DNA from: Shigella phage ESh28
Sequence record: ON528738
Reading direction: 5' to 3' (one strand)
DNA length: 64,000 nucleotides
A program made the position numbers and the translations under genes. The notes under the pieces are model-generated. The model was not told the DNA's origin and did no database searches. It was given only the letters and a program-made list of their open reading frames with translations. Shown here piece by piece: positions 5,875-62,357 of the stretch. Every line of letters starts with the position of its first letter. Within the stretch, counting starts at the first letter, position 1.

Positions 5875-5908
5875 TGGTTTACAAGTTGGCAAGGTTATGG
5901 TATAGTAA
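5875..5908 (+). promoter_or_regulatory. T4-type early promoter
   Basis: gtttac 5877-5882, tggtatagt -10 at 5898-5906. Confidence 0.55.
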
Positions 5909-5934
5909 TCTTGTCAACTGCCAAGGAGAAGAGA

Positions 5935-9030: not shown

Positions 9031-9056
9031 AGGGAGCCTTCGGGCTCCCTTTTTTA
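9031..9056 (+). terminator. rho-independent terminator
   Basis: gggagcc-ttcg-ggctccc followed by ttttttatttc. Confidence 0.75.
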
Positions 9057-9077: not shown

Positions 9078-9111
9078 TTGTTTACAAGCATAAAGCTTTA
9101 TGGTACTATAC
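9078..9111 (+). promoter_or_regulatory. T4-type early promoter with A/T-rich upstream tract
   Basis: gtttac 9080-9085, tggtactat -10 9101-9109, conserved leader caactatcaact. Confidence 0.6.
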
Positions 9112-10112: not shown

Positions 10113-10213
10113 TTCATAAGAGGCCTTCTATGACAAAAAGGCAGTTCAGAAATAGATTATATGGACTGCCATCAAAAAGATGACTAGAATTAAACTGGTA
10201 AATGGAGGTAATG

Positions 10214-10516
10214 ATGTTATACTCAAAGGCTCGTGAAATTTATGAAACTAAAATTAAAGACGCGGTTCATCAGTTCGCAACGACAATGCGTTGGACAAAT
10301 GACTGGGAATACTCCAAGAATCATAAGAAGCCCTTGGTGACAAGAAAGGCTCATATATTAGTGTTAATAGACCGTGAGCAGATTAAAGCCCGAGAAGCCC
10401 TCCAGAATCATAAAAAGGCTGCCTTTGAATGGTTTATGGATAACACTGCTCCTGAGACTAAGAAAGCAGTGAGCGCTTGGTTCAGTGGAAAAAATTGTGA
10501 AAGAAGTTTCTTTTAG
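10214..10516 (+). CDS. hypothetical protein, about 100 aa
   Basis: Track ORF 10202..10516; start moved to ATG downstream of ggagg. Confidence 0.45.
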   Translation: MLYSKAREIYETKIKDAVHQFATTMRWTNDWEYSKNHKKPLVTRKAHILVLIDREQIKAREALQNHKKAAFEWFMDNTAPETKKAVSAWFSGKNCERSFF

Positions 10517-10550
10517 TTGTTTACAAGACCGTTCCTCTGTGGTACTATAC
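10517..10550 (+). promoter_or_regulatory. T4-type early promoter (cassette repeated at 62184..62217)
   Basis: gtttac 10519-10524, tggtactat 10540-10548; about 65 bp near-identical to 62183..62247. Confidence 0.6.
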
Positions 10551-10576
10551 AACTATCAACTACGGAGGAACAGAAA

Positions 10577-11104
10577 ATGAATGCTAAAGATATTTTCAAC
10601 TTGGTAAACTACAATGATGGTAAATTTAAATCTGAAGCTCAAAGCAAGTTCTTTAATGATGTCTCAATCGGTGGTGAAATCACGGTTGATGGAGGACAAA
10701 TTTACAAATCCCGTTGGAATTGGATCGTTATTATCGATGAGATTGGTATTGTAGAAATTTACAAGAATACGAATAAAAATCGTACATTACACTGGTCTCG
10801 TGATACTAACGAACAGTACAAAAAGGATAAAGCATCTAAATTATCTCGTGTAACTCAAGAAGATATTGAGTTCATCAAGAAAGATATTTTGATGTATGAT
10901 AACTTAATTGCTGAAGAGCAAGCTGTTATTGATAAATTTGACGAGATTAAAGCTTCTCGTGAAATTCCTGATTTTATGAAAGAATCAGTAAATGAACGAT
11001 ACACTCTCATTTCAGAGCGTATTGAAACTTACAAAAAGCAAAGAGCTGAACGCCAAAATACTCTTCGGAAGTTTGAAGAACGGTTAAAGACGGTACTCGC
11101 ATAA
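10577..11104 (+). CDS. hypothetical protein, 175 aa
   Basis: Track ORF 10517..11104 trimmed to ATG following acggagga RBS. Confidence 0.55.
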   Translation: MNAKDIFNLVNYNDGKFKSEAQSKFFNDVSIGGEITVDGGQIYKSRWNWIVIIDEIGIVEIYKNTNKNRTLHWSRDTNEQYKKDKASKLSRVTQEDIEFIKKDILMYDNLIAEEQAVIDKFDEIKASREIPDFMKESVNERYTLISERIETYKKQRAERQNTLRKFEERLKTVLA

Positions 11105-21869: not shown

Positions 21870-22070
21870 ATGAATCCTGAATCTAAATTATCGCAACGAA
21901 TTGCTGAAGCTCGTCGCCAGTTCTTTGAAAATATGATAGCCCAAGGTATTGATGACGAAGTTTTTCTAAACTGGTTTTGGAATCACAAATATTCAAGTTG
22001 CTCAGGAGCAATATTAATATCAGCCGCAATGATGTACGAAGGCTGGAAGGGTGCCAAAAAGTTTAGCTAA
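21870..22070 (+). CDS. hypothetical protein, 66 aa
   Basis: Track ORF; TAAATG overlap; followed by terminator. Confidence 0.5.
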   Translation: MNPESKLSQRIAEARRQFFENMIAQGIDDEVFLNWFWNHKYSSCSGAILISAAMMYEGWKGAKKFS

Positions 22071-22088
22071 GGGCTTCGGCCCTTTTTG
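22069..22088 (+). terminator. rho-independent terminator
   Basis: aagggc-ttcg-gccctt followed by ttttt. Confidence 0.7.
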
Positions 22089-22122
22089 GATAATAAAATT
22101 TTAATGCAATTGAGGATAATGT

Positions 22123-22933: not shown

Positions 22934-22946
22934 CTGATATCCTCTA

Positions 22947-22982
22947 TGCTTTAAGATAGATCTTCAAATATTATGATATAAT
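22947..22982 (+). promoter_or_regulatory. possible MotA-dependent middle promoter upstream of gene 55
   Basis: MotA-box-like tgcttta at 22947-22953 with A/T-rich -10 candidates downstream; flanked by two ATAGATCT copies. Confidence 0.3.
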
Positions 22983-23011
22983 AGATCTATGAATTGAGCT
23001 AAGAGGTGAAA

Positions 23012-23569
23012 ATGTCAGAAACTAAGCCTAAATATAATTACGTAAACAATAAAGAGCTTTTACAAGCTATTATTGATTGGAAAACAGAATTAGCAAATAA
23101 TAAAGACCCAAATAAAGTAGTTCGTCAGAATGATACTATCGGATTAGCCATTATGCTTATTGCAGAAGGCTTATCTAAACGTTTTAACTTTTCAGGATAC
23201 ACCCAATCTTGGAAACAAGAAATGATTGCAGATGGTATAGAAGCTTCTATTAAGGGGCTTCACAATTTTGATGAAACGAAATATAAAAACCCACATGCAT
23301 ATATAACTCAAGCTTGTTTTAATGCATTCGTCCAACGTATTAAAAAAGAACGTAAGGAAGTTGCAAAGAAATATAGTTACTTCGTTCACAATGTCTATGA
23401 CAGTCGTGACGACGATATGGTTGCGTTAGTAGATGAAACTTTTATTCAAGACATCTATGATAAAATGACGCATTACGAAGAATCAACCTATAGAACACCG
23501 GGGGCTGAAAAGAAAAGTGTTGTAGACGATTCTCCTAGTTTGGATTTTTTATATGAGGCTAACGATTAA
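23012..23569 (+). CDS. 55: late-transcription sigma factor gp55
   Basis: 185 aa, [23 protein letters not shown]; matches T4 gp55. Confidence 0.9.
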
Positions 23570-24505: not shown

Positions 24506-25708
24506 ATGAAAGTATGTATTTTTATGGCTCGAGGTCTTGAAGGTTGTGGTGTAACAAAATTCTCACTCGAGCAACGTGATTGGTTTATTAAAAATGGTCA
24601 TGAAGTGACTTTGGTTTATGCTAAAGATAAATCATTTACTCGTAATTGCGCGCATGATTATAAATCATTTTCAATTCCGGTTTTATTGGCAAAAGAATAT
24701 GATAAAACACTTAAGCTGGTAAATGATTGTGATATTCTAATTATCAATTCAGTTCCTGCTACTTCGGTTGAAGAAGACACTATTAATAACTATAAAAAAA
24801 TTATTGATAACATTAAACCTTCTGTTCGTGTTGTAGTTTATCAGCATGACCATTCTTCTCTTTCTTTGCGTCGAAATTTGGGATTAGAAGAAACTGTTCG
24901 TCGAGCTGATGTTATTTTTAGCCATTCTGATAATGGCGATTTTAATAAAGTTCTGATGAAAGAATGGTATCCAGAAACTGTTTCTCTGTTTGATGATATT
25001 GAAGAAGCACCGACAGTATATAACTTTCAGCCTCCTATGGATATTGCGAAGGTTCGGTCAACCTACTGGAAAGATGTTTCTGAAATTAACATGAATATCA
25101 ACCGTTGGATTGGTCGTACGACTACATGGAAAGGTTTTTATCAGATGTTTGATTTTCACGAAAAACATCTTAAACCTGCAGGACTAAGTACTATTATGGA
25201 AGGTCTGGAACGTTCTCCAGCGTTCATTCCCATTAAAGAAAAAGGAATTCCATACGAGTATTATCGTCTTCATCAAGTAGACCAAATTAAAATTGCTCCT
25301 AATTTGCCAACGCAAATTCTTGACCGTTATGTAAATAGCGAAATGCTTGAACGCATGAGTAAATCCGGATTTGGTTATCAGCTGAGTAAGTTGGACAAAA
25401 AATATCTACAACGTTCTTTAGAATATACTCATCTCGAGCTTGGTGCATGTGGAACAATTCCGGTATTTTGGAAATCTACTGGCGAAAATTTAAAATTCCG
25501 TGTTGATAATACTCCTTTGACCTCGCATGATAGCGGTATCATTTGGTTTGATGAAAATGACATGGAATCAACATTTGAACGTATTAAAGAACTGTCATCT
25601 GACCGAACTCTTTATGACCGCGAACGCGAAAAAGCTTATGAATTTTTGTATCAGCATCAAGATTCAAGCTTCTGCTTTAAAGAACAGTTTGACATTATTA
25701 CAAAATAA
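24506..25708 (+). CDS. agt: DNA alpha-glucosyltransferase
   Basis: 400 aa, MKVCIFMARGLEGCGVTKFSLEQRDWFIKNGHEV; matches T4 alpha-gt as recalled. Confidence 0.9.
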   Translation: MKVCIFMARGLEGCGVTKFSLEQRDWFIKNGHEVTLVYAKDKSFTRNCAHDYKSFSIPVLLAKEYDKTLKLVNDCDILIINSVPATSVEEDTINNYKKIIDNIKPSVRVVVYQHDHSSLSLRRNLGLEETVRRADVIFSHSDNGDFNKVLMKEWYPETVSLFDDIEEAPTVYNFQPPMDIAKVRSTYWKDVSEINMNINRWIGRTTTWKGFYQMFDFHEKHLKPAGLSTIMEGLERSPAFIPIKEKGIPYEYYRLHQVDQIKIAPNLPTQILDRYVNSEMLERMSKSGFGYQLSKLDKKYLQRSLEYTHLELGACGTIPVFWKSTGENLKFRVDNTPLTSHDSGIIWFDENDMESTFERIKELSSDRTLYDREREKAYEFLYQHQDSSFCFKEQFDIITK

Positions 25709-25730
25709 AGGGCTTCGGCCCTTTAGCTTT
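25708..25730 (+). terminator. rho-independent terminator
   Basis: aagggc-ttcg-gccctt followed by tagcttt. Confidence 0.6.
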
Positions 25731-25747
25731 ATACGGAGTTTGATATA

Positions 25748-29728: not shown

Positions 29729-30415
29729 ATGAAACTGTCTAAAGATACTACTGCTCTGCTTAAAAATTTCGCTACTATTAACTCCGGTATTATGCTTAAA
29801 TCCGGTCAATTTATTATGACTCGCGCAGTTAATGGTACAACTTATGCGGAAGCAAATATTTCTGACGTTATTGATTTTGATGTAGCAATTTACGATTTAA
29901 ACGGTTTTCTCGGTATTCTGTCTCTAGTTAATGATGACGCAGAAATTTCCCAGTCAGAAGATGGAAATATTAAAATTGCTGATGCTCGCTCAACAATTTT
30001 TTGGCCAGCAGCCGATCCGAGTACAGTAGTTGCTCCTAATAAACCGATTCCATTCCCGGTAGCATCTGTTGTTACTGAAATTAAAGCTGAAGACCTTCAA
30101 CAACTGTTGCGTGTATCTCGTGGTCTACAAATTGATACAATTGCTATCACGGTAAAAGAAGGTAAAATCGTAATTAACGGTTTTAATAAAGTAGAAGATT
30201 CTGCTTTGACTCGTGTTAAATATTCTTTGACTCTTGGTGATTATGATGGTGAAAATACATTTAATTTCATTATCAATATGGCAAATATGAAAATGCAACC
30301 AGGAAATTATAAACTTCTGCTCTGGGCAAAAGGTAAACAAGGTGCTGCTAAATTTGAAGGTGAACACGCGAATTATGTAGTAGCTCTTGAAGCTGATTCT
30401 ACCCACGATTTTTAA
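29729..30415 (+). CDS. 45: sliding clamp gp45
   Basis: 228 aa, MKLSKDTTALLKNFATINSGIMLKSGQFIMTRAV; matches T4 gp45. Confidence 0.9.
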   Translation: MKLSKDTTALLKNFATINSGIMLKSGQFIMTRAVNGTTYAEANISDVIDFDVAIYDLNGFLGILSLVNDDAEISQSEDGNIKIADARSTIFWPAADPSTVVAPNKPIPFPVASVVTEIKAEDLQQLLRVSRGLQIDTIAITVKEGKIVINGFNKVEDSALTRVKYSLTLGDYDGENTFNFIINMANMKMQPGNYKLLLWAKGKQGAAKFEGEHANYVVALEADSTHDF

Positions 30416-30416
30416 T

Positions 30417-30440
30417 AGAGGGCTTCGGCCCTTTATAATT
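30417..30440 (+). terminator. terminator-like UUCG hairpin
   Basis: agggc-ttcg-gccct followed by ttataatt. Confidence 0.55.
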
Positions 30441-30466
30441 TACACTAAAATTTGAATGAGGAAATT

Positions 30467-31426
30467 ATGATTACCGTAAATGAAAAAGAACACATTCTTG
30501 AACAGAAATATCGTCCATCTACTATCGATGAATGTATTCTTCCCGCCTTTGATAAAGAAACCTTTAAATCTATTACAAGTAAAGGTAAGATTCCACATAT
30601 TATTCTTCATTCTCCTTCTCCAGGAACAGGTAAAACAACTGTAGCAAAAGCATTGTGTCATGATGTAAATGCTGATATGATGTTTGTGAATGGATCAGAT
30701 TGTAAAATTGATTTCGTTCGTGGTCCTTTGACTAATTTTGCCAGCGCCGCTTCATTTGATGGTCGTCAAAAAGTAATCGTTATTGATGAATTTGACCGCT
30801 CAGGATTAGCAGAATCTCAGCGACATCTTCGTTCCTTTATGGAAGCTTATAGTTCGAACTGTAGTATTATTATTACTGCTAACAATATTGATGGTATTAT
30901 TAAACCACTTCAGTCACGCTGCCGAGTTATTACGTTCGGTCAACCGACCGATGAAGATAAAATTGAAATGATGAAGCAGATGATTCGTCGATTGACTGAA
31001 ATCTGTAAACATGAAGGTATTGCTATAGCTGATATGAAAGTTGTAGCAGCTTTGGTTAAAAAGAATTTTCCTGATTTTCGTAAAACTATTGGCGAGCTCG
31101 ATAGTTATTCATCTAAAGGTGTTTTGGATGCTGGTATTTTATCACTGGTTACTAACGATCGTGGTGCTATTGATGATGTTCTTGAGTCTCTCAAAAATAA
31201 AGATGTTAAACAACTCAGAGCTTTAGCACCAAAATATGCAGCTGATTATTCGTGGTTCGTGGGTAAACTTGCCGAAGAAATCTATACACGTGTAACACCA
31301 CAGAGTATTATTCGTATGTACGAAATTGTCGGCGAAAATAATCAGTATCATGGAATTGCGGCTAATACTGAATTGCATCTAGCTTATCTTTTCATTCAGT
31401 TAGCATGTGAAATGCAGTGGAAGTGA
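30467..31426 (+). CDS. 44: clamp loader large subunit gp44
   Basis: Track ORF 30452..31426 trimmed to ATG after gaggaaatt; 319 aa; Walker A GTGKTT, Walker B DEFD. Confidence 0.9.
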
Positions 31427-39298: not shown

Positions 39299-40726
39299 GT
39301 GGTAGAAATTATTCTTTCTCATCTCATATTTGATCAAGCTTATTTTTCAAAAGTTTGGCCATATATGGATTCAGAATATTTTGAAAGTGGTCCAGCTAAA
39401 AATACGTTCAAATTAATTAAATCTCATGTTAATGAGTATCATAGCGTTCCATCTATTAATGCGTTAAATGTTGCATTAGAAAATAGTTCATTTACTGAAA
39501 CGGAATATTCTGGTGTAAAAACACTTATTTCAAAACTAGCCGATTCTCCAGAAGACCACAGCTGGTTAATAAAAGAAACAGAAAAATATGTTCAGCAAAG
39601 GGCGATGTTTAATGCTACGTCTAAAATAATCGAAATTCAAACTAATGCTGAGCTTCCTCCGGAAAAACGAAATAAGAAAATGCCGGATGTTGGTGCTATT
39701 CCTGACATCATGCGTCAAGCATTATCAATTTCATTTGATAGCTACGTTGGTCATGATTGGATGGATGACTACGAAGCACGCTGGCTATCTTATATGAATA
39801 AAGCTCGTAAGGTTCCATTTAAACTCAGAATTCTAAACAAAATTACTAAAGGCGGAGCTGAGACTGGAACACTGAACGTTTTAATGGCTGGTGTTAACGT
39901 TGGTAAATCATTAGGACTTTGTTCATTAGCAGCAGATTATTTGCAGCTTGGTCATAACGTTCTTTATATCTCCATGGAAATGGCAGAAGAAGTCTGTGCT
40001 AAGCGTATTGATGCTAATATGCTTGATGTTTCTCTTGATGACATTGATGATGGGCATATTTCTTACGCTGAGTATAAAGGAAAAATGGAAAAATGGCGCG
40101 AGAAATCTACTCTCGGTCGTTTAATCGTTAAACAGTATCCTACTGGTGGAGCAGACGCTAATACATTCAGGTCTCTCTTGAACGAATTGAAGCTCAAAAA
40201 GAATTTTGTTCCAACAATCATTATTGTCGACTATCTAGGTATTTGTAAATCTTGCCGCATTAGAGTTTATTCAGAAAATAGTTACACAACTGTTAAAGCT
40301 ATTGCAGAGGAATTGCGTGCTCTGGCTGTTGAAACCGAAACTGTTCTTTGGACTGCAGCACAGGTCGGTAAACAAGCTTGGGACTCTTCTGATGTTAACA
40401 TGAGCGATATTGCAGAATCTGCCGGTCTTCCAGCAACGGCTGATTTTATGCTTGCGGTCATTGAAACCGAGGAGCTAGCAGCTGCTGAACAACAACTTAT
40501 TAAGCAAATCAAATCACGATATGGCGATAAGAATAAGTGGAATAAGTTTTTGATGGGTGTTCAAAAGGGAAATCAGAAATGGGTAGAAATTGAACAAGAT
40601 TCTACTCCAACCGAAGTGAGTGAAGTAGCAGGTTCACAACAGATTCAGGCTGAACAGAATCGCTATCAAAGAAACGAATCAGCTCGAGCTCAGTTAGATG
40701 CTTTGGCAAATGAATTAAAATTTTAG
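39299..40726 (+). CDS. 41: replicative DNA helicase gp41 (DnaB-like)
   Basis: 475 aa, GTG start; MVEIILSHLIFDQAYF, Walker A GVNVGKS; matches T4 gp41. Confidence 0.9.
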   Translation: MVEIILSHLIFDQAYFSKVWPYMDSEYFESGPAKNTFKLIKSHVNEYHSVPSINALNVALENSSFTETEYSGVKTLISKLADSPEDHSWLIKETEKYVQQRAMFNATSKIIEIQTNAELPPEKRNKKMPDVGAIPDIMRQALSISFDSYVGHDWMDDYEARWLSYMNKARKVPFKLRILNKITKGGAETGTLNVLMAGVNVGKSLGLCSLAADYLQLGHNVLYISMEMAEEVCAKRIDANMLDVSLDDIDDGHISYAEYKGKMEKWREKSTLGRLIVKQYPTGGADANTFRSLLNELKLKKNFVPTIIIVDYLGICKSCRIRVYSENSYTTVKAIAEELRALAVETETVLWTAAQVGKQAWDSSDVNMSDIAESAGLPATADFMLAVIETEELAAAEQQLIKQIKSRYGDKNKWNKFLMGVQKGNQKWVEIEQDSTPTEVSEVAGSQQIQAEQNRYQRNESARAQLDALANELKF

Positions 40727-40757
40727 TTTACAAGCTGACAAGACTATGGTATAGTAG
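40724..40757 (+). promoter_or_regulatory. T4-type early promoter
   Basis: gtttac 40726-40731, tggtatagt 40747-40755; -10 lies within inverted repeat caagacta/tagtcttg. Confidence 0.6.
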
Positions 40758-40784
40758 TCTTGTTGGTTAAATGAGGAGATTGTT

Positions 40785-41581: not shown

Positions 41582-42214
41582 ATGATTTATTATATGCACA
41601 AAAATCCACCGTTTAAATACGGTAAATTTCCTGATGCACAATGTTATAACATAACGCCTGATGAAAATAACCGTGGATATCTTATTGGCACAATTTTTGT
41701 AATTGTTAAAGATAACGAAATCGTTGCCTGGGCAGATTTTAAAGGTACAACATATGATGTTAATCCGGTGCCTTTCACATATTACAATTTAATGGATTTG
41801 GCATACGATTATAATTGGTTTAATCATGACACGTTGGCTCATATTGAAGGTGTAGGATTTGACATCTCTTATTCTAGCTACTCATTGTGTCCTATGAGTC
41901 GGGCTCATAAAGAACCTGAATATTTTTCATTTAGGAAACGTGTAAACTTTAAACGCAACACAGAGTATGTCGGTGGAATCTTTGTTAAAGATAATCGAAT
42001 TACTCGCATTATTTATCCTTTGGGCTGTGGTCAAAAAGATATTGATGTTGATTTAGACTTTACTGAAAACATCATTAATCATATTGCTTCTGTGTATTTT
42101 GGTATCGATCACAAAATTGTAATATGTGGATATGAATTACCGTTTGAAGAACAACCTAAAGTAAAAGTTTCTATTGACGATCAAATTTTTAATGCTTTTA
42201 TGAATAAAGGTTAA
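41582..42214 (+). CDS. 61.2-like protein, 210 aa (possible anti-DarT factor AdfA homolog)
   Basis: Track ORF; position matches T4 61.2; shares VKDN motif and 14-aa C-terminal tail with the next ORF. Confidence 0.5.
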   Translation: MIYYMHKNPPFKYGKFPDAQCYNITPDENNRGYLIGTIFVIVKDNEIVAWADFKGTTYDVNPVPFTYYNLMDLAYDYNWFNHDTLAHIEGVGFDISYSSYSLCPMSRAHKEPEYFSFRKRVNFKRNTEYVGGIFVKDNRITRIIYPLGCGQKDIDVDLDFTENIINHIASVYFGIDHKIVICGYELPFEEQPKVKVSIDDQIFNAFMNKG

Positions 42215-42215
42215 T

Positions 42216-42572
42216 ATGTATAGTTCTGAATTTTCATATTTAAAAATGGAAAAAATTTCATACGATTTTATAGATGAAAAGGTTTATTACAGTTTCCATG
42301 AACCACGTTTTAATAGTGAGGTTGGGTTTATTGTAGTAAAAGACAATTTCATTTTAAAGATATATTCGGCATTAAAGGATTTTCACTACGAAAATATTAA
42401 CCTAAAATTTGATAAAGAAAACGTTCGTAATTGTGCAGTAACAATTACAGGAAATAAAGGCACATGTGTTATGCTATCTGATGAAATTAATGATTTGCTA
42501 AATGATGCCGAAAAGGTTGCTATTCCATCTATTGATGACCAAATTTTTAATGCTTTTATGAATAGAGGTTAA
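42216..42572 (+). CDS. truncated paralog of the 61.2-like gene, 118 aa
   Basis: Track ORF; ends in SIDDQIFNAFMNRG, near-identical to the preceding gene's SIDDQIFNAFMNKG. Confidence 0.5.
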   Translation: MYSSEFSYLKMEKISYDFIDEKVYYSFHEPRFNSEVGFIVVKDNFILKIYSALKDFHYENINLKFDKENVRNCAVTITGNKGTCVMLSDEINDLLNDAEKVAIPSIDDQIFNAFMNRG

Positions 42573-42573
42573 T

Positions 42574-42738
42574 ATGAAAACATATAAAGAATTTATTAAA
42601 GAAGATATGGTAGCTGGAGATTCAGGTGGTAATCCTGAAAATATCTCTACTGGAACAACATCAGGTGCTGTAGTAAATAAAGGTCCTGAACAGATTCCTA
42701 AAAAGAAAAAAGAGGAATCTAAAGAAAAAGAAGAGTAA
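42574..42738 (+). CDS. hypothetical Lys/Glu-rich protein, 54 aa (T4 61.1 position)
   Basis: ATG 2 nt after previous stop; ends 2 nt before primase start. Confidence 0.4.
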   Translation: MKTYKEFIKEDMVAGDSGGNPENISTGTTSGAVVNKGPEQIPKKKKEESKEKEE

Positions 42739-47025: not shown

Positions 47026-47059
47026 TTGTTTACTTTCCTTTCTAACGATGATATGATAG
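47026..47059 (+). promoter_or_regulatory. T4-type early promoter
   Basis: gtttac 47028-47033, tatgat -10 at 47052-47057. Confidence 0.5.
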
Positions 47060-47083
47060 CTTCTGAAGTATACGGAGGCTATC

Positions 47084-47707
47084 ATGATTATTAATCCTGT
47101 AGATGTTGAACAATTATCTATAAAAGCTGAAAGCGTTGATTTTCAATATGATATGTATAAAAAGGTCTGTGAAAAATTTACTGACTTCGAGCAGTCAGTT
47201 CTTTGGCAATGTATGGAAGCTAAAAAGAATGAAGCTCTTCACCGGCAGTTGAATAAAATCATTAAAAAGCATTTAACTAAATCACCTTATCAGCTATATC
47301 GTGGTATATCAAAATCGACAAAAGAGCTCATTAAAGGTTTACAAGTTGGAGAAGTGTTTTCAACGAACAGAGTAGATTCATTTACTACTAGTTTGCATAC
47401 AGCGTGTTCTTTTTCTTATGCTGAATATTTTACTGAAACAATACTTCGCTTAAAAACTGATAAAGCTTTTAATTACTCTGACCATATCAGCGATATTATA
47501 CTTTCTTCTCCTAATACTGAGTTTAAGTATACATATGAAGATACTGATGGATTAGATTCAGAACGTACTGATAACTTAATGATGATTGTGCGTGAACAAG
47601 AATGGATGATTCCAATTGGAAAGTATAAAATAACTTCTATTTCAAAAGAAAAATTACACGATTCATTTGGAACATTTAAAGTGTATGATATTGAGGTAGT
47701 TGAATGA
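47084..47707 (+). CDS. modB: ADP-ribosyltransferase ModB
   Basis: 207 aa; R-S-E ART motifs (YRG, TTS, EQEWMIP); length and order match T4 modB. Confidence 0.65.
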   Translation: MIINPVDVEQLSIKAESVDFQYDMYKKVCEKFTDFEQSVLWQCMEAKKNEALHRQLNKIIKKHLTKSPYQLYRGISKSTKELIKGLQVGEVFSTNRVDSFTTSLHTACSFSYAEYFTETILRLKTDKAFNYSDHISDIILSSPNTEFKYTYEDTDGLDSERTDNLMMIVREQEWMIPIGKYKITSISKEKLHDSFGTFKVYDIEVVE

Positions 47708-52218: not shown

Positions 52219-52252
52219 TTGTTTACTTCCTCGGTTAGTTGTGGTATTATAA
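52219..52252 (+). promoter_or_regulatory. T4-type early promoter
   Basis: gtttac 52221-52226, tggtattat 52242-52250. Confidence 0.55.
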
Positions 52253-52277
52253 CACCATAGCTACTGAGGATAATAAA

Positions 52278-52790
52278 ATGAAAATTTATCGTGTTGAATC
52301 ATCGTTTAGCGCATTAAATGATGATAGTGGTATAGTGAAAATTAGGCAAGAGTTGTGCGTTCAATCAACTCCTTATCGTGGATTTGATTCTATGAAAACT
52401 CGAACTTGGCTAAAATTTTGCGGTATTAATTCATCGTCATTTCATCATCATAGCGATAATTATGAAAGCCATGAAAGTATTCCTATTCCACACGATGATA
52501 AGTTATTAGTTGAAAATGCTAATGATGTTATTAAAACTAAATGGAATAAAGATTATTCACAATTTGAAAATTATATTCCGTTGTGGCTTATTGCATTATA
52601 TCATTTTGCTTTCGCTAGTGAATATGATATGATGAGATGGTTCACCCGAGAAGAGCGTGAAGACTTAAAAGATCGTGGAATGTACATTGCGATTTATGAA
52701 GTTCCTGAAGATGAAGTTATCATTGGCGGGCACCAAGTAATGTTCCGTAAATCCCATGCTGAACTTGTAGATTTTATTGAAATGAGATAA
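52278..52790 (+). CDS. hypothetical protein, 170 aa
   Basis: Track ORF 52239..52790 trimmed to ATG after ctgaggataat. Confidence 0.5.
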   Translation: MKIYRVESSFSALNDDSGIVKIRQELCVQSTPYRGFDSMKTRTWLKFCGINSSSFHHHSDNYESHESIPIPHDDKLLVENANDVIKTKWNKDYSQFENYIPLWLIALYHFAFASEYDMMRWFTREEREDLKDRGMYIAIYEVPEDEVIIGGHQVMFRKSHAELVDFIEMR

Positions 52791-52792
52791 TT

Positions 52793-53338
52793 ATGAAATT
52801 TAATTATAATCTTGAATACACACCGAATCCTGTAGATAAACTGATTGATTTTGATGTTATAAGCACTTATGTATGCCCTGTTAAACCACTGGAAATTAAG
52901 GAACCTACTATGACTACCGCTATTGAAATCGGCAAAACCTACAAACTGGTTGAACCTAAAATTAAAACTAATGCCTTGATTTCTGGTCATAAAACTCTGA
53001 CTGATGTTTTTGGCGAAGGCGAATTTATTGTTGAAGAATTTGCCAAAAGTGAGTGGTTTGACAAATCTTACGTCATCCACGGTCGCCGGTTAGATAATAA
53101 CAAAATAAAGAAAAACCTGGTTTATGAAGATGAGTTCATCCTGTTCCAAGAAGTTGAAGAACAAGACCCTACAGACCTGTTGTGTGCTGCTGTGTCTATC
53201 CGTCGTCCTTTTGATAATCCTATCTGTGGTTGGGTAACAGACCAGTGGATTGAAGATGGTGTTGAGCTTCTGAACGTTGTCCATGCAGGAGATTTTAGTG
53301 TAGTACCTCGTAGTGCGGTGGTAGCTATTTTGAATTAA
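52793..53338 (+). CDS. MotB-like paralog, 181 aa
   Basis: Track ORF; C-terminal ICGWVTDQWIEDGVELLNVVHAGDFSVVP parallels the next gene's MCGYITDQWVEDGVKLYNVVFLGTYKVIP. Confidence 0.55.
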   Translation: MKFNYNLEYTPNPVDKLIDFDVISTYVCPVKPLEIKEPTMTTAIEIGKTYKLVEPKIKTNALISGHKTLTDVFGEGEFIVEEFAKSEWFDKSYVIHGRRLDNNKIKKNLVYEDEFILFQEVEEQDPTDLLCAAVSIRRPFDNPICGWVTDQWIEDGVELLNVVHAGDFSVVPRSAVVAILN

Positions 53339-53903: not shown

Positions 53904-53926
53904 AGTTTAAAATTTTTTCATAAAAC

Positions 53927-53960
53927 TATATACATCAGTAGTTGATTATGGTACTATATC
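53927..53960 (+). promoter_or_regulatory. possible early promoter with conserved leader cassette
   Basis: tggtactat -10 at 53950-53958 and leader caatatcaactactgata...ttggagaataaaATG as at 9100 and 35277; -35 weak. Confidence 0.4.
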
Positions 53961-54075
53961 AATATCAACTACTGATATAGAAAACAACTTGGAGAATAAA
54001 ATGGATAATTCGTTAAAGGTGCTGATACTCTTCTGAAACGCATCGCTCCAATGTTCAATTAATGAGGAAATTGTA

Positions 54076-55252: not shown

Positions 55253-55513
55253 ATGAAATATGTTAATCGTTCTATCGCGGCATTAGTATTAGCAGTATCT
55301 TTAGTAGGATGTACTGATGCTGATAATGCAACCAAAGTTTTGTCTTCAAGTGGTTTTACTAATATTGAAATCACTGGATATAATTGGTTCGGTTGCTCTG
55401 AAAATGATTTCCAGCATACTGGATTTCGTGCTATTGGACCTACCGGGCAGAAAGTAGAAGGAACAGTATGTTCTGGTCTATTCTTCAAGGATTCGACTAT
55501 CCGTTTTAAATAA
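55253..55513 (+). CDS. small lipoprotein, 86 aa
   Basis: Track ORF 55241..55513 trimmed to ATG; signal peptide with lipobox LVGC. Confidence 0.5.
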   Translation: MKYVNRSIAALVLAVSLVGCTDADNATKVLSSSGFTNIEITGYNWFGCSENDFQHTGFRAIGPTGQKVEGTVCSGLFFKDSTIRFK

Positions 55514-55532
55514 AAGGCCTTCGGGCCTTTAG
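55513..55532 (+). terminator. rho-independent terminator
   Basis: aggcc-ttcg-ggcct followed by ttagcttt. Confidence 0.6.
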
Positions 55533-55582
55533 CTTTATGATTACCGGAGTATAATATTCCCGAAACCAAACGAGGATAAGTG

Positions 55583-57454: not shown

Positions 57455-57658
57455 ATGAAATCATATAAAGTAAATTTAGAACTTTTTGATAAAGCAGTTC
57501 ATCGAGAATATAGAATCATTCAACGCTTTTTCGATATGGGAGAAGCCGAAGAATTTAAAAACCGCTTTAAAGATATTAGAGATAAAATTCAATCCGACAC
57601 CGCAACTAAAGATGAACTACTAGAAGTTGCTGAAGTTATTAAACGCAATATGAATTAA
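57455..57658 (+). CDS. hypothetical protein, 67 aa (T4 rIIA.1 position)
   Basis: Track ORF with gaggatatt RBS. Confidence 0.5.
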
Positions 57659-57668
57659 TGAGGAAATT

Positions 57669-59846
57669 ATGATTATCACCACTGAAAAAGAAACAATTCT
57701 TGGTAATGGTTCTAAATCAAAAGCATTTAGCATCACAGCATCTCCTAAAGTATTTAAAATTCTGTCATCTGATTTGTATACAAACAAAATTCGCGCAGTA
57801 GTCCGTGAATTGATTACCAACATGATTGATGCCCATGCTCTCAATGGAAATCCTGAAAAATTTATCATTCAAGTTCCTGGACGTTTAGATCCACGATTTG
57901 TTTGCCGAGATTTTGGTCCAGGTATGAGTGATTTTGATATTCAGGGTGATGATAATTCTCCTGGTTTGTATAATTCATACTTCAGTTCATCTAAGGCTGA
58001 ATCTAACGATTTCATTGGCGGATTTGGTTTAGGTTCTAAATCTCCGTTTAGTTATACTGATACATTTAGTATTACTTCATATCATAAAGGCGAAATTCGT
58101 GGTTATGTAGCTTACATGGATGGTGATGGTCCGCAAATTAAACCTACATTCGTAAAAGAAATGGGTCCAGACGATAAAACTGGTATTGAAATCGTAGTTC
58201 CAGTTGAAGAAAAAGACTTTAGAAACTTTGCTTATGAAGTTTCTTATATCATGCGACCATTCAAAGATTTGGCTATCATTAATGGTCTTGACCGCGAAAT
58301 TGATTATTTTCCGGATTTTGATGATTATTACGGTGTAAATCCAGAAAGATACTGGCCTGATCGCGGTGGATTATATGCTATCTATGGCGGTATTGTTTAT
58401 CCTATTGATGGTGTTATTAGAGACCGCAACTGGTTAAGCATTCGCAATGAAGTGAATTACATTAAGTTTCCAATGGGTTCACTGGATATTGCTCCATCAC
58501 GCGAAGCTCTTTCACTGGACGATCGCACTCGCAAAAATATTATTGAACGAGTTAAAGAACTCAGTGAGAAAGCATTTAATGAAGATGTAAAACGATTTAA
58601 AGAATCTACATCTCCTCGTCACACATATCGTGAATTGATGAAGATGGGATATTCTGCTCGAGATTATATGATTAGTAATTCAGTCAAATTCACGACTAAA
58701 AATCTGTCATATAAAAAGATGCAGAGCATGTTTGAACCTGATAGTAAGTTATGCAACGCGGGAGTTGTGTATGAAGTAAATCTTGACCCTCGACTGAAAC
58801 GCATTAAGCAAAGCCATGAAACTTCAGCCGTTGCATCAAGTTATCGTCTGTTTGGTATTAATACAACAAAAATTAATATCGTTATTGATAATATTAAAAA
58901 TCGTGTTAATATTGTCCGCGGATTAGCACGAGCGTTAGATGATAGTGAATTTAATAACACTTTGAATATTCATCATAATGAGCGTCTTCTGTTTATTAAT
59001 CCAGAAGTAGAATCGCAGATTGATTTACTTCCTGATATTATGGCGATGTTTGAAAGTGATGAAGTTAACATTCATTATTTGTCAGAAATTGAAGCTTTAG
59101 TTAAAAGCTATATTCCAAAGGTAGTTAAAAGTAAAGCTCCTCGTCCTAAAGCTGCTACAGCATTTAAGTTTGAAATTAAAGACGGACGCTGGGAAAAAGA
59201 GGAACTATTTACGCTCACATCAGAAGCAGATGAAATTACTGGTTATGTAGCGTATATGCATCGTTCTGATATTTTCTCTATGGATGGTACTACATCTCTT
59301 TGTCATCCATCTATGAATATTTTGATTCGTATGGCTAATCTTATTGGCATTAATGAATTTTATGTTATTCGTCCGCTTTTACAGAAAAAGGTAAAAGAAC
59401 TCGGTCAGTGCCAATGTATTTTTGAAGCTTTGCGTGATTTATATGTAGATGCTTTTGATGATGTAGATTATGATAAGTACGTAGGTTATTCAAGTTCAGC
59501 TCAACGATATATTGATAAAATTATCAAGTATCCTGAACTAGATTTTATGATGAAGTACTTCAGTGTAGATGAAGTTTCTGAAGAATATACACGACTCGCT
59601 AATATGGTTAGTTCATTACAGGGTGTATATTTTAATGGTGGAAAAGATACCATCGGTCATGACATCTGGACAGTAACTAATCTTTTTGATGTATTATCAA
59701 ATAATGCTTCAAAAAATAGTGATAAAATGGTTGCTGAGTTTACCAAGAAATTCCGTATTGTTTCCGACTTCATTGGTTATCGCAATTCTTTAAGCGATGA
59801 TGAAGTTTCCCAAATCGCTAAAACTATGAAGGCCCTTGCGGCCTAA
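57669..59846 (+). CDS. rIIA: rIIA
   Basis: 725 aa; N-terminal GHKL-like ATPase motifs; matches T4 rIIA length and position. Confidence 0.9.
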
Positions 59847-59857
59847 TAAGGAAAATT

Positions 59858-60796
59858 ATGTACAATATTAAATGCCTGACCAAAAACGAACAAGCTGAAA
59901 TTGTTAAATTGTATTCAAGTGGTAATTACACCCAACAGGAATTGGCTGATTGGCAAGGTGTATCGGTTGACACAATCCGTCGTGTTTTGAAAAATGCTGA
60001 AGAAGCTAAACGCTCTAAAGTTACTATTAGTGGTGATATTACAGTTAAAGTTAATAGCGATGCAGTTATTGCTCCAGTTGCTAAATCTGACATTATTTGG
60101 AATGCATCTAAAAAATTCATTTCAATTACTGTTGACGGTGTAACTTATAATGCAACTCCTAATACTCATTCAAACTTCCAGGAAATTCTTAATCTGCTCG
60201 TAGCAGATAAGTTAGAAGAAGCGGCACAAAAAATTAATGTTCGTCGCGCTGTTGAAAAATATATTTCCGGTGATGTTCGAATTGAAGGTGGAAGCTTGTT
60301 CTATCAAAATATTGAATTGCGGTCTGGTTTGGTTGATCGTATTCTTGATTCGATGGAAAAAGGTGAAAACTTTGAATTTTATTTTCCGTTCTTGGAAAAT
60401 CTGCTGGAAAACCCAAGCCAGAAAGCGGTATCTCGACTCTTTGATTTCTTGGTAGCAAACGATATTGAAATTACAGAAGATGGTTACTTCTATGCTTGGA
60501 AAGTAGTTCGCAGCAATTACTTTGACTGTCACTCAAATACCTTTGATAACAGTCCGGGTAAAGTAGTTAAAATGCCGCGTACTCGCGTGAATGACGATGA
60601 TACACAAACTTGTTCTCGTGGTCTGCATGTGTGTTCTAAATCTTATATTCGTCACTTTGGCAGTTCAACCAGCCGAGTTGTAAAAGTTAAAGTGCATCCG
60701 CGTGATGTAGTATCAATTCCGATTGATTACAACGATGCTAAAATGCGTACCTGCCAATACGAAGTAGTTGAAGACGTTACTGAACAATTTAAATAA
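59858..60796 (+). CDS. rIIB: rIIB
   Basis: 312 aa, MYNIKCLTKNEQAEIVKLYSSGNYTQQELADW; matches T4 rIIB. Confidence 0.9.
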   Translation: MYNIKCLTKNEQAEIVKLYSSGNYTQQELADWQGVSVDTIRRVLKNAEEAKRSKVTISGDITVKVNSDAVIAPVAKSDIIWNASKKFISITVDGVTYNATPNTHSNFQEILNLLVADKLEEAAQKINVRRAVEKYISGDVRIEGGSLFYQNIELRSGLVDRILDSMEKGENFEFYFPFLENLLENPSQKAVSRLFDFLVANDIEITEDGYFYAWKVVRSNYFDCHSNTFDNSPGKVVKMPRTRVNDDDTQTCSRGLHVCSKSYIRHFGSSTSRVVKVKVHPRDVVSIPIDYNDAKMRTCQYEVVEDVTEQFK

Positions 60797-60815
60797 GGGC
60801 TTCGGCCCTTAACTG
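60795..60815 (+). terminator. terminator-like UUCG hairpin (no clear U tract)
   Basis: aagggc-ttcg-gccctt followed by aactg. Confidence 0.4.
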
Positions 60816-60824
60816 AGGAAAATT

Positions 60825-61019
60825 ATGTTAGGTTATCAAGCACGAGTAAAAGAAGAATACGATCAATTAATGCTCAAAATTAATGCACTGAGCAAATTTT
60901 TAGAAAGCGCAAAGTTTCTAACAGTTAATGCAGTTGAGCAAGAACTGTTACTTTCGCAGTTTATCTCAATGAAATCTTATGCTGAATGTCTAGAGAAAAG
61001 AATTGCACAATTCAAATAA
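60825..61019 (+). CDS. hypothetical protein, 64 aa
   Basis: Track ORF with gaggaaaatt RBS. Confidence 0.5.
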   Translation: MLGYQARVKEEYDQLMLKINALSKFLESAKFLTVNAVEQELLLSQFISMKSYAECLEKRIAQFK

Positions 61020-61020
61020 A

Positions 61021-61045
61021 ATAAGGGCTTCGGCCCTTTTGTTTT
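61021..61045 (+). terminator. rho-independent terminator
   Basis: aagggc-ttcg-gccctt followed by ttgtttt. Confidence 0.7.
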
Positions 61046-61105
61046 AAGAGAAATTATGATTTATTATATGAATACCAGTGATTCAGACATAAAAGGAAAG
61101 TTTAA

Positions 61106-61677: not shown

Positions 61678-61711
61678 CAGTTTACATACCACAAGGACTG
61701 TGGTACTATAC
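61678..61711 (+). promoter_or_regulatory. T4-type early promoter
   Basis: gtttac 61680-61685, tggtactat 61701-61709, leader caactatcagctacggagga. Confidence 0.6.
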
Positions 61712-61736: not shown

Positions 61737-62000
61737 ATGAAATTTAAATTTTATTACGCTAAACATAAAATAACTGATGAGTTTGTGTCAGTTGAATATT
61801 CTAGCGACGATGAAGGTATGATTTATACTCGCTTGGGACTATCGCATTGGGAGTCTGATACGCCTTATTTTTCAACTCCCGAAGAAATTACACGCTTAGT
61901 TAATGGTCATATGAATGACCACTGGAATGTAATTCTTTCAGATAGTCTTAAAGCGGCTATTAATAGTAATGAAATGAAAATCGCTGAGATTGAACTATGA
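61737..62000 (+). CDS. hypothetical protein, 87 aa
   Basis: Track ORF with ggaggagt RBS. Confidence 0.5.
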   Translation: MKFKFYYAKHKITDEFVSVEYSSDDEGMIYTRLGLSHWESDTPYFSTPEEITRLVNGHMNDHWNVILSDSLKAAINSNEMKIAEIEL

Positions 62001-62183
62001 GTTCATTGTGGTGGTGTTTTGTTTGGTTAATTAGTATTCCAGTAATTTGTTTAACATTTACTTTTGTGATGAGGTTATTATGAAAATTTTGAATTCTGTA
62101 CTTATTGCTTGTGCGTGGTGGGTTGCGCAAGTTTCAGCAGTAGTAGTTGGTATTCACATTTATTACGAATATTTTTAAAAAAG

Positions 62184-62217
62184 TTGTTTACAAGACTGTT
62201 CCTCTGTGGTACTATAC
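62184..62217 (+). promoter_or_regulatory. T4-type early promoter (cassette copy of 10517..10550)
   Basis: gtttac 62186-62191, tggtactat 62207-62215; one mismatch to the cassette at 10515-10579. Confidence 0.6.
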
Positions 62218-62243
62218 AACTATCAACTACGGAGGAACAGAAA

Positions 62244-62357
62244 ATGAAAAAGATTGTTAAAGCTATATGGAATGTAGTTATAATACTAGTAGTTTTGAGT
62301 ATATTCCCAATCGTTTTAATGATTGATGTATTAAACGCTTACTTTGGATTTATGTGA
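62244..62357 (+). CDS. small membrane peptide, 37 aa
   Basis: ATG with acggagga RBS in the cassette; the longer track ORF 62109..62357 reads through the promoter. Confidence 0.35.
   Translation: MKKIVKAIWNVVIILVVLSIFPIVLMIDVLNAYFGFM

Follow-up and report, generated by a model that had tools for sequence, protein, structure and literature searches.

Why should a phage genome carry the same early promoter, leader, and ribosome-binding site in front of two different genes, and what does it mean that the Shine-Dalgarno sequence (SD) of that leader is complementary to the spacer of its own promoter? The question arises from a 64,000-nucleotide (nt) stretch of Shigella phage ESh28 (record ON528738), which we refer to as the window. 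The window is T4-like (Tequatrovirus), and its plus strand corresponds to the T4 minus strand; in a BLAST search of phage genomes, about 500 Tequatrovirus records matched both loci at 92 to 99% identity. A search of the window with the 65-mer pattern gave exactly two matches at up to three mismatches, 10515-10579 (no mismatch) and 62182-62246 (one mismatch), against a chance expectation of 0 in 100 shuffles. The copies agree at 66 of 67 positions (99%) over 10515-10581 and 62182-62248, where the identity ends at ATGAA; unrelated coding sequence flanks both, and the coordinates of copy 2 are those of copy 1 plus 51,667. Copy 1 separates nrdC.9 from nrdC.8; copy 2 separates ndd.5 from ndd.4 in a region downstream of rIIB, denB.1, and denB. 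They are the most similar pair in a window family of at least seven cassettes that share GTTTAC-N15-TGGTACTATACAACTATC. T4 itself carries an nrdC.8 cassette and an ndd.4 cassette, and GenBank annotators marked the ndd.4 copy of phage SA21RB as a T4 early promoter. Our reading, made in silico and given a probability of roughly 60%, is that both copies belong to a known cassette type, the promoter-early stem-loop (PeSL) element, with a plausible translational gate that would close in read-through RNA. The parts of the two copies are as follows.

10515-10581, plus strand: cassette copy 1, with early promoter, leader, SD, and ATGAA, between the nrdC.9 stop and the nrdC.8 start
10520-10525, plus strand: copy 1 -35 hexamer TTTACA, inside GTTTAC at 10519-10524
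10531-10543, plus strand: copy 1 5' arm GTTCCTCTGTGGT, with anti-SD tract CCTC, in the -35/-10 spacer
10540-10548, plus strand: copy 1 extended -10, TGG plus TACTAT (TG at 10540-10541, hexamer at 10543-10548)
10544-10558, plus strand: copy 1 loop of 15 nt, which contains the predicted start site and five of the six -10 hexamer bases
About 10553-10556, plus strand: copy 1 predicted transcription start, placed by usual sigma-70 spacing
10559-10571, plus strand: copy 1 3' arm ACTACGGAGGAAC, with SD GGAGG at 10564-10568
62182-62248, plus strand: cassette copy 2, between the ndd.5 stop (62176-62178) and the ndd.4 start
62187-62192, plus strand: copy 2 -35 hexamer TTTACA
62196-62210, plus strand: copy 2 5' arm CTGTTCCTCTGTGGT, 15 nt
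62210-62215, plus strand: copy 2 -10 hexamer TACTAT
62226-62240, plus strand: copy 2 3' arm ACTACGGAGGAACAG, with SD GGAGG at 62231-62235

Both copies have the features of T4 early promoters, namely a GTTTAC(A/T) -35 element, a 17-bp spacer, TGn, and TAnnnT (10520-10548 and 62187-62215). An A/T-rich, UP-like region occupies -40 to -60; that of copy 2 is cgaatatttttaaaaaagtt, and that of copy 1, gaaagaagtttcttttagtt, is less A/T rich because it overlaps the end of nrdC.9. The original prediction had described a 65-bp promoter-leader-ribosome-binding site cassette present twice with a single base difference, and this description was borne out: there were two matches only, none expected by chance, and each copy has TTTACA, the 17-bp spacer, an extended -10, an SD, and an ATG. 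The position given for copy 1 (10515-10579) was exact, whereas copy 2 had been placed at 62183-62247, one nucleotide too far downstream.

In RNA that contains both arms, copy 1 forms a stem of 13 bp (10531-10543 with 10559-10571, including two G-U pairs) and copy 2 a stem of 15 bp (62196-62210 with 62226-62240), the two additional outer pairs being due to the single C-to-T difference between the copies. Minimum free energies of the read-through RNAs were -21.7 kcal/mol for copy 1 and -24.6 kcal/mol for copy 2 (z = -3.55 and -3.78), and none of 200 shuffled sequences folded as well. The locally initiated leader was unstructured (-2.3 kcal/mol, z = -0.26). Lying within the -35/-10 spacer, the 5' arm would be absent from transcripts begun at the cassette promoter, provided that this promoter is used. 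The cost of opening the segment from SD to AUG was computed for both RNAs: it was 15.4 kcal/mol in read-through versus 4.2 kcal/mol in local RNA for nrdC.8 (copy 1), and 16.0 versus 1.5 kcal/mol for ndd.4 (copy 2). These values support in silico what had been proposed, that the SD is sequestered only in read-through transcripts, and they come from the very folding comparison that the original prediction had suggested. The pairing it described is real but longer than the 10 bp with one G-U pair that it gave; its placement of the -10 element and start site in the loop agrees with the loop at 10544-10558. Rfam covariance models gave no match at E ≤ 1 within 10300-10800, and membership in a known RNA family was rejected.

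The gate that we propose also involves the neighboring genes and promoters listed here.

9080-9109, plus strand: nrdC.10 early promoter, the likely read-through source for copy 1
10202-10516, plus strand: nrdC.9, the open reading frame (ORF) upstream of copy 1, with its stop codon at 10514-10516
10577-11104, plus strand: nrdC.8 coding sequence (175 aa; ATG at 10577), the gene served by copy 1
61680-61709, plus strand: early promoter after denB, a member of the cassette family 506 bp upstream of copy 2 and its likely read-through source
62244-62357, plus strand: ndd.4 coding sequence (37 aa), a predicted small membrane protein

In this model, each copy would be a single PeSL cassette that combines a strong T4 early promoter of the sigma-70 type with a leader and a ribosome-binding site. 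Initiation at the local promoter would yield a leader that lacks the 5' arm, leaving the SD open so that nrdC.8 or ndd.4 could be translated. RNA with both arms may come from the nrdC.10 and denB-proximal early promoters and, later, from middle-mode or delayed-early transcription; in such RNA the 13- to 15-bp hairpin would bury the SD, and the downstream cistron would stay untranslated. The net result would be that translation of nrdC.8 and ndd.4 is limited to the brief period in which their own early promoters fire. The model is built on sequences, geometry, thermodynamics, covariation, and an allele mosaic, and from these it makes predictions about whether the promoters are used, whether and how much read-through RNA is made, and what follows for translation. 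Read-through is plausible because a terminator scan found no terminator-like site between either copy and the next upstream early promoter (9080 and 61680, respectively). Translation of the upstream ORF terminates 14 nt 5' of the stem in copy 1 and 17 nt 5' of it in copy 2, so that terminating ribosomes should not melt either hairpin. In T4, mapped middle promoters lie just downstream and serve the next genes (PnrdC.7 at 53325 and Pndd.3 at 166702; PMC2988021); thus, these next genes are independent of translation from read-through RNA.

To evaluate the specificity of the pairing, we used cassettes of the form GTTTAC-N15-TGnTAnnnT followed by an SD and an ATG, taken from the window, T4, and IMG/VR loci, with 59 remaining after clustering of near duplicates. 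The IMG/VR scan for GTTTAC-N15-TGGTACTAT returned many chance matches in unrelated contigs and was used only after the SD/ATG filter and clustering; the IMG/VR cassettes are those among the matches listed, and this database is poor in Tequatroviruses (8 nrdC.8 loci and 9 cassette matches). Among the matches listed, a cassette's own spacer paired with its own leader at -16 kcal/mol or better in 15% of the 59 nonredundant cassettes, compared to 0.56% of mismatched spacer-leader pairs (permutation P < 1e-5). Two geometries occur, one with the 3' arm just after the -10 box and the SD free, the other with the 3' arm over the SD, and in many family members the hairpin encloses the -10 box only. Strong masking exclusively by the native upstream half (rank 0 of 57) sets apart a discrete subset: T4 nrdC.8, regB, modB, and a gene resembling motB.2 (the motB.2-like gene). 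For the T4 nrdC.8 cassette, which stands for the type discussed here, the native half masks the SD beyond all 57 foreign halves, and opening the stretch from SD to AUG costs 15.8 kcal/mol in read-through versus 3.6 kcal/mol in local RNA. Furthermore, across the 112 plus-strand gene starts of the window, strong context-dependent masking was found at 4 of the 14 starts with an early promoter versus 2 of the 98 others (Fisher P = 0.002). One of these two is gene 49, a published promoter-in-hairpin case that was thereby recovered as a positive control (free-energy difference [ddG], 12.2); the second is gene 55, with a hairpin around a middle-type promoter. soc, which would have served as a second positive control, was not among the masked starts in the window. 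Among sense-strand mismatches in the stems, G-T outnumbers A-C by 28 to 8 (P = 6e-4), an excess that points to sense RNA rather than duplex DNA.

The same layout was found at other starts, and in five genes of the window the 3' arm lies on the SD or the AUG. In the regB promoter and leader (887-945; ATG at 945), the spacer TTTTCCTCTTGACTG pairs with the SD-bearing CAGTTAAGAGGAGAA, and the opening cost is 18.6 kcal/mol in read-through versus 4.7 kcal/mol in local RNA. This hairpin masks the SD in three lineages, with five pairs changed on both sides; the compared RegB proteins are 77% and 67 to 68% identical to that of the window. Because a MAFFT alignment put the regB 3' arms out of register, the pairs were tabulated from an SD-anchored comparison instead. 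At the modB promoter (47047-47092; ATG at 47084), the extended -10 itself, GATGATATGATAGCTTCTG, forms a 19-bp stem with a segment made up of the SD, the ATG, and the opening codons (20.0 versus 4.0 kcal/mol; fold z = -3.5). At the promoter of the motB.2-like ORF (52228-52270; ATG at 52278), a 17-bp spacer-SD stem has a z of -5.4 and opening costs of 15.1 versus 4.7 kcal/mol. Promoter and leader of this last gene are identical to T4 over 59 nt (100%), beyond which the ORF departs from T4 motB.2; this pattern suggests a gene replacement that began at the cassette.

Related layouts were also seen elsewhere in the window. The start of gene 55, the late sigma factor (22934-23018; ATG at 23012), is masked by a two-tier hairpin (ddG, 11.4 kcal/mol): in the outer tier the anti-SD ATCCTCT pairs with AGAGGT, and the inner stem encloses the -10 box of a middle-type promoter with the MotA box ATGCTTTAA. 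Here, the cassette design is repeated with a middle promoter. Two related early promoters, at 5877-5915 and 40726-40765 (the dmd promoter), have spacers that pair with the first transcribed bases, giving stems of 13 to 15 bp that close a 6-nt loop around the -10 box and leave the SD free; between them, one pair is changed on both sides (T-A versus C-G). A family member at 53909-53977 has an atypical -35, TATACA, which places it outside the regular-expression set, and its spacer TCAGTAGTTGAT is a perfect 12-bp complement of the leader motif ATCAACTACTGA.

We further compared orthologous and allelic hairpins. The hairpin between nrdC.9 and nrdC.8 differs in each of the four genera compared. In Dhakavirus nrdC.8 orthologues, the arms ATCTCCAGTAG and CTACTGGAGGT mask the SD, with opening costs of 17.7 to 19.5 kcal/mol in read-through versus 2.7 to 4.5 kcal/mol in local RNA; when anchored on GGAG, the Dhakavirus and Tequatrovirus stems differ by six pairs changed on both sides, all of them still paired. 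Within Tequatrovirus, all 13 core pairs are kept in 11 of 11 alleles from both loci, and at the four variable core pairs the only changes are exchanges of Watson-Crick for G-U pairing or the reverse. These one-sided, wobble-preserving changes are consistent with the model and do not decide for it.

Several observations weigh against masking of the SD as the role of the hairpin. The same 11 Tequatrovirus alleles contain no two-sided change of a pair, and shuffle controls carry no information at this level. Roughly 5 of the 13 pairs (GUGGU with ACUAC) derive from motifs that are conserved family-wide for other reasons. The Mosigvirus hairpin (AGGTCTAT with ATAGACCT; 6.4 versus 4.3 kcal/mol) and the Gaprivervirus hairpin (AGTATGGGGA with TTCCCATACT; 1.8 to 2.8 versus 3.5 kcal/mol) form around the -10 box and leave the SD unmasked, and masking is thus not universal to the stem-loop. 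The authors who described PeSL elements assigned the stem-loop the role of a terminator or attenuator, never mentioning translation or ribosomes, and in their hands an RB49 PeSL stem-loop reduced lacZ expression to the same extent as the rrnB T1 terminator (PMC2839356). On that account, the structure would attenuate or terminate upstream transcripts, or stabilize their 3' ends, and its overlap with the SD would be incidental. The GenBank records of SA21RB and SA35RD annotate these very hairpins as rho-independent terminators (WebGeSTer) overlapping an early promoter, and, as in the two unmasked genera, many hairpins of the family surround the -10 box alone. We nevertheless regard this explanation as unlikely. 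The stem is followed by AGAAAATGAA rather than a U-tract and closes a 15-nt loop, and the terminator scan makes no call; on these grounds, with the tail AGAAAATG lacking a U-tract, an intrinsic terminator was rejected. In addition, the compensatory changes in Dhakavirus nrdC.8 and in the three regB lineages hold the stem exactly over the SD, where the 3' arm also falls, on SD or AUG, at the five window genes. The two roles are compatible, and an untranslated cistron could also provoke Rho-dependent termination.

A function against RNA decay can be imagined too, in which pairing would protect the GGAG of the SD in read-through RNA from RegB and from subsequent decay by RNase E/G, so that RNA for genes farther downstream stays intact, while the SD of local transcripts, being exposed, is cut. 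RegB cleaves GGAG in the SDs of early genes, its own included (PMC3014915); GGAG is present in the 3' arm of both cassettes, and regB shares the hairpin layout. This proposal is purely inferential, though, and the same evidence fits translational masking, with which it would act together; as a replacement for SD masking, we consider it improbable. Still less credit, and very little in absolute terms, goes to the notion that the complementarity has no function, as a by-product of pyrimidine-rich spacers, purine-rich SDs, and shared motifs, or that it works at the DNA level as a palindrome or cruciform affecting the promoter. It is true that the GTGGT-ACTAC part of the stem joins the extended -10 to the family leader motif and that CTCY or TTCC tracts are frequent in family spacers. 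The own-versus-chimera tests, however, control for composition and motifs and still give P < 1e-5 and rank 0 of 57 among the matches listed, and pairs are changed on both sides across genera. As for DNA, the sense-strand bias toward G-T over A-C (28 versus 8) favors sense RNA. Cruciform extrusion is energetically unlikely for DNA with a 15-nt loop. SD masking in read-through RNA, as originally proposed, is the best-supported reading.

The near-identity of the two copies calls for an account of its own, and PeSL biology offers one. The original prediction had matched the cassettes to PeSL recombination modules of T4-type phages, and such elements are indeed on record (PMC2839356 and PMC4122927), with the ndd.4/.5 site of T4 and PST serving in Figure 6A of the latter as an example of PeSL-mediated exchange. 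As in the definition of PMC2839356, early promoter, stem-loop, SD, and ATG are combined here in one intergenic unit of about 60 to 100 bp. At least seven related copies exist, and the two studied here belong to clusters of hypothetical ORFs, nrdC.x and ndd.x. The elements are also linked to insertions, deletions, and replacements between close relatives. The interval between denB and ndd.6, which begins at the 61680 cassette, has no ORF in T4, one in the window, and two in SA21RB; it is a hyperplastic spot bounded by that cassette. Of the window ORF of this interval (87 aa; 61737-62000), T4 retains only the last eight codons, joined to another leader at a junction that coincides with a short AAATG repeat; in SA21RB and ime09, an extra 68-aa ORF precedes the ORF.

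Compared to T4, in which the ndd.4 and nrdC.8 cassettes differ at eight positions (5' arm, loop, and 3' arm), the window copies differ at one. The window-type ndd.4 allele is present at ≥99% identity in 28 of 505 Tequatrovirus records, and T4 stands at 93%. Different phages carry the loop variants ACAAC and TACCC, and likewise the arm variants, at one locus or the other, and this mosaic is the pattern expected of gene conversion in both directions. In this lineage, as judged from the alleles, gene conversion between dispersed PeSLs probably copied the nrdC.8 cassette over that of ndd.4. Excision of a mini-circle between the copies was rejected, since the 51.7 kb between them hold essential replication genes; with this 52-kb separation, no excision would be viable, and the two copies can only exchange sequence. 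Several other repeats and matches were noted along the way. Direct repeats at 42170-42218 and 42528-42576 (49 nt, 94% identity, 358 bp apart, ending in GGTTAATATG) and at 30455-30500 and 57657-57702 (46 nt, 83% identity, around AATGAGGAAATTATGATTA) look like duplicated gene ends or starts. The 67-nt cassette also matches PV654520.1, a 142-kb record labeled as a Pseudomonas phage, at 95.5% identity; either the genome is T4-like and its host label unexpected, or the record is contaminated.

T4 early promoters, the PeSL class, and translational gating by a promoter inside a hairpin are all already published. A translational reading of the PeSL stem-loop appears to be new: no description of SD masking by T4 early-promoter stem-loops was found in a search that did not extend to the older promoter papers or the 2003 genome review (PMC150520), where a prior description is possible. 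If our reading is true, part of the early-to-middle switch of T4-type phages is encoded in promoter spacers, and each such gene has its own off-switch against translation from foreign transcripts. It would also give a functional reason, besides recombination, for the conservation of PeSL sequences, lead to a reinterpretation of hairpins now annotated as terminators, and help explain the abrupt end of some early protein synthesis; the shut-off of early promoters is itself described as not fully understood (PMC3014915). The proposed gene conversion would provide a concrete case of dispersed regulatory cassettes homogenizing over 52 kb. A wider generalization is possible, and we hold it tentatively, at somewhat less than even odds: SD-covering PeSL stem-loops might form a general, unrecognized layer of T4 temporal control rather than terminators, with the same design at middle (gene 55) and late (e, soc, and 49) promoters, and the hairpin might at the same time hide GGAG from RegB. 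Under this generalization, spacer anti-SDs would restrict regB, modB, the motB.2-like gene, nrdC.8, and ndd.4, several of which are likely toxic, to transcripts of their own promoters, and synthesis of these proteins would end at early promoter shut-off despite continuing read-through.

Set beside known systems, the cassettes are closest to the PeSL elements, with which they share an AT-rich region upstream of an early promoter of the sigma-70 type, a stem-loop that overlaps -10 or lies between it and -35, and a 3' SD and ATG, as well as repetition in hyperplastic regions beside small ORFs of unknown function and an association with insertions and deletions. In our cassettes, by contrast, the SD itself serves as the 3' arm and the stem lacks a trailing U-tract; moreover, the PST stem-loops lie just upstream of the promoter (figure legend in PMC4122927), whereas here the stem spans the -10 box. 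Compared to T4 early "uber" promoters (UP/-35/TGn/-10; PMC2988021), there is no difference in the promoter: GTTTAC, the 17-bp spacer, TGn, A/T-rich upstream sequence, and extra conserved positions downstream of -10 are common to both. What the cassettes add is that the supposedly free spacer is constrained by its pairing with the leader. With intrinsic terminators they have in common a stable intergenic stem-loop, called by WebGeSTer in the two GenBank records, but not the compact loop followed by a T-run of the window's terminators, GGGCTTCGGCCC. Such UUCG-loop hairpins were seen at 9031-9050, 22068-22101, 25702-25732, 30412-30442, 55508-55538, 60794-60827, and 61017-61055; mostly followed by a T-run, they are the canonical intrinsic terminators of the window, unlike the cassette hairpin.

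The translational behavior proposed here has its precedent in T4 e, soc, 49, and I-TevI, which are gated by a hairpin with an internal late promoter (reviewed in PMC3014915). As in those genes, the SD and/or AUG is paired in the long RNA and free in the promoter-proximal RNA, in our case as computed, and the start of the embedded promoter, if it is used, lies 3' of the 5' strand of the helix. The published gates contain the late promoter TATAAATA, whereas the cassettes lack TATAAATA and carry the early sigma-70 arrangement GTTTAC-N15-TGnTAnnnT; they would therefore work like the e, soc, 49, and I-TevI gates without being members of that group. Because the embedded promoter is early and not late, the temporal logic would be reversed: where the known hairpins delay translation until late in infection, those of nrdC.8 and ndd.4 would confine it to the earliest period.

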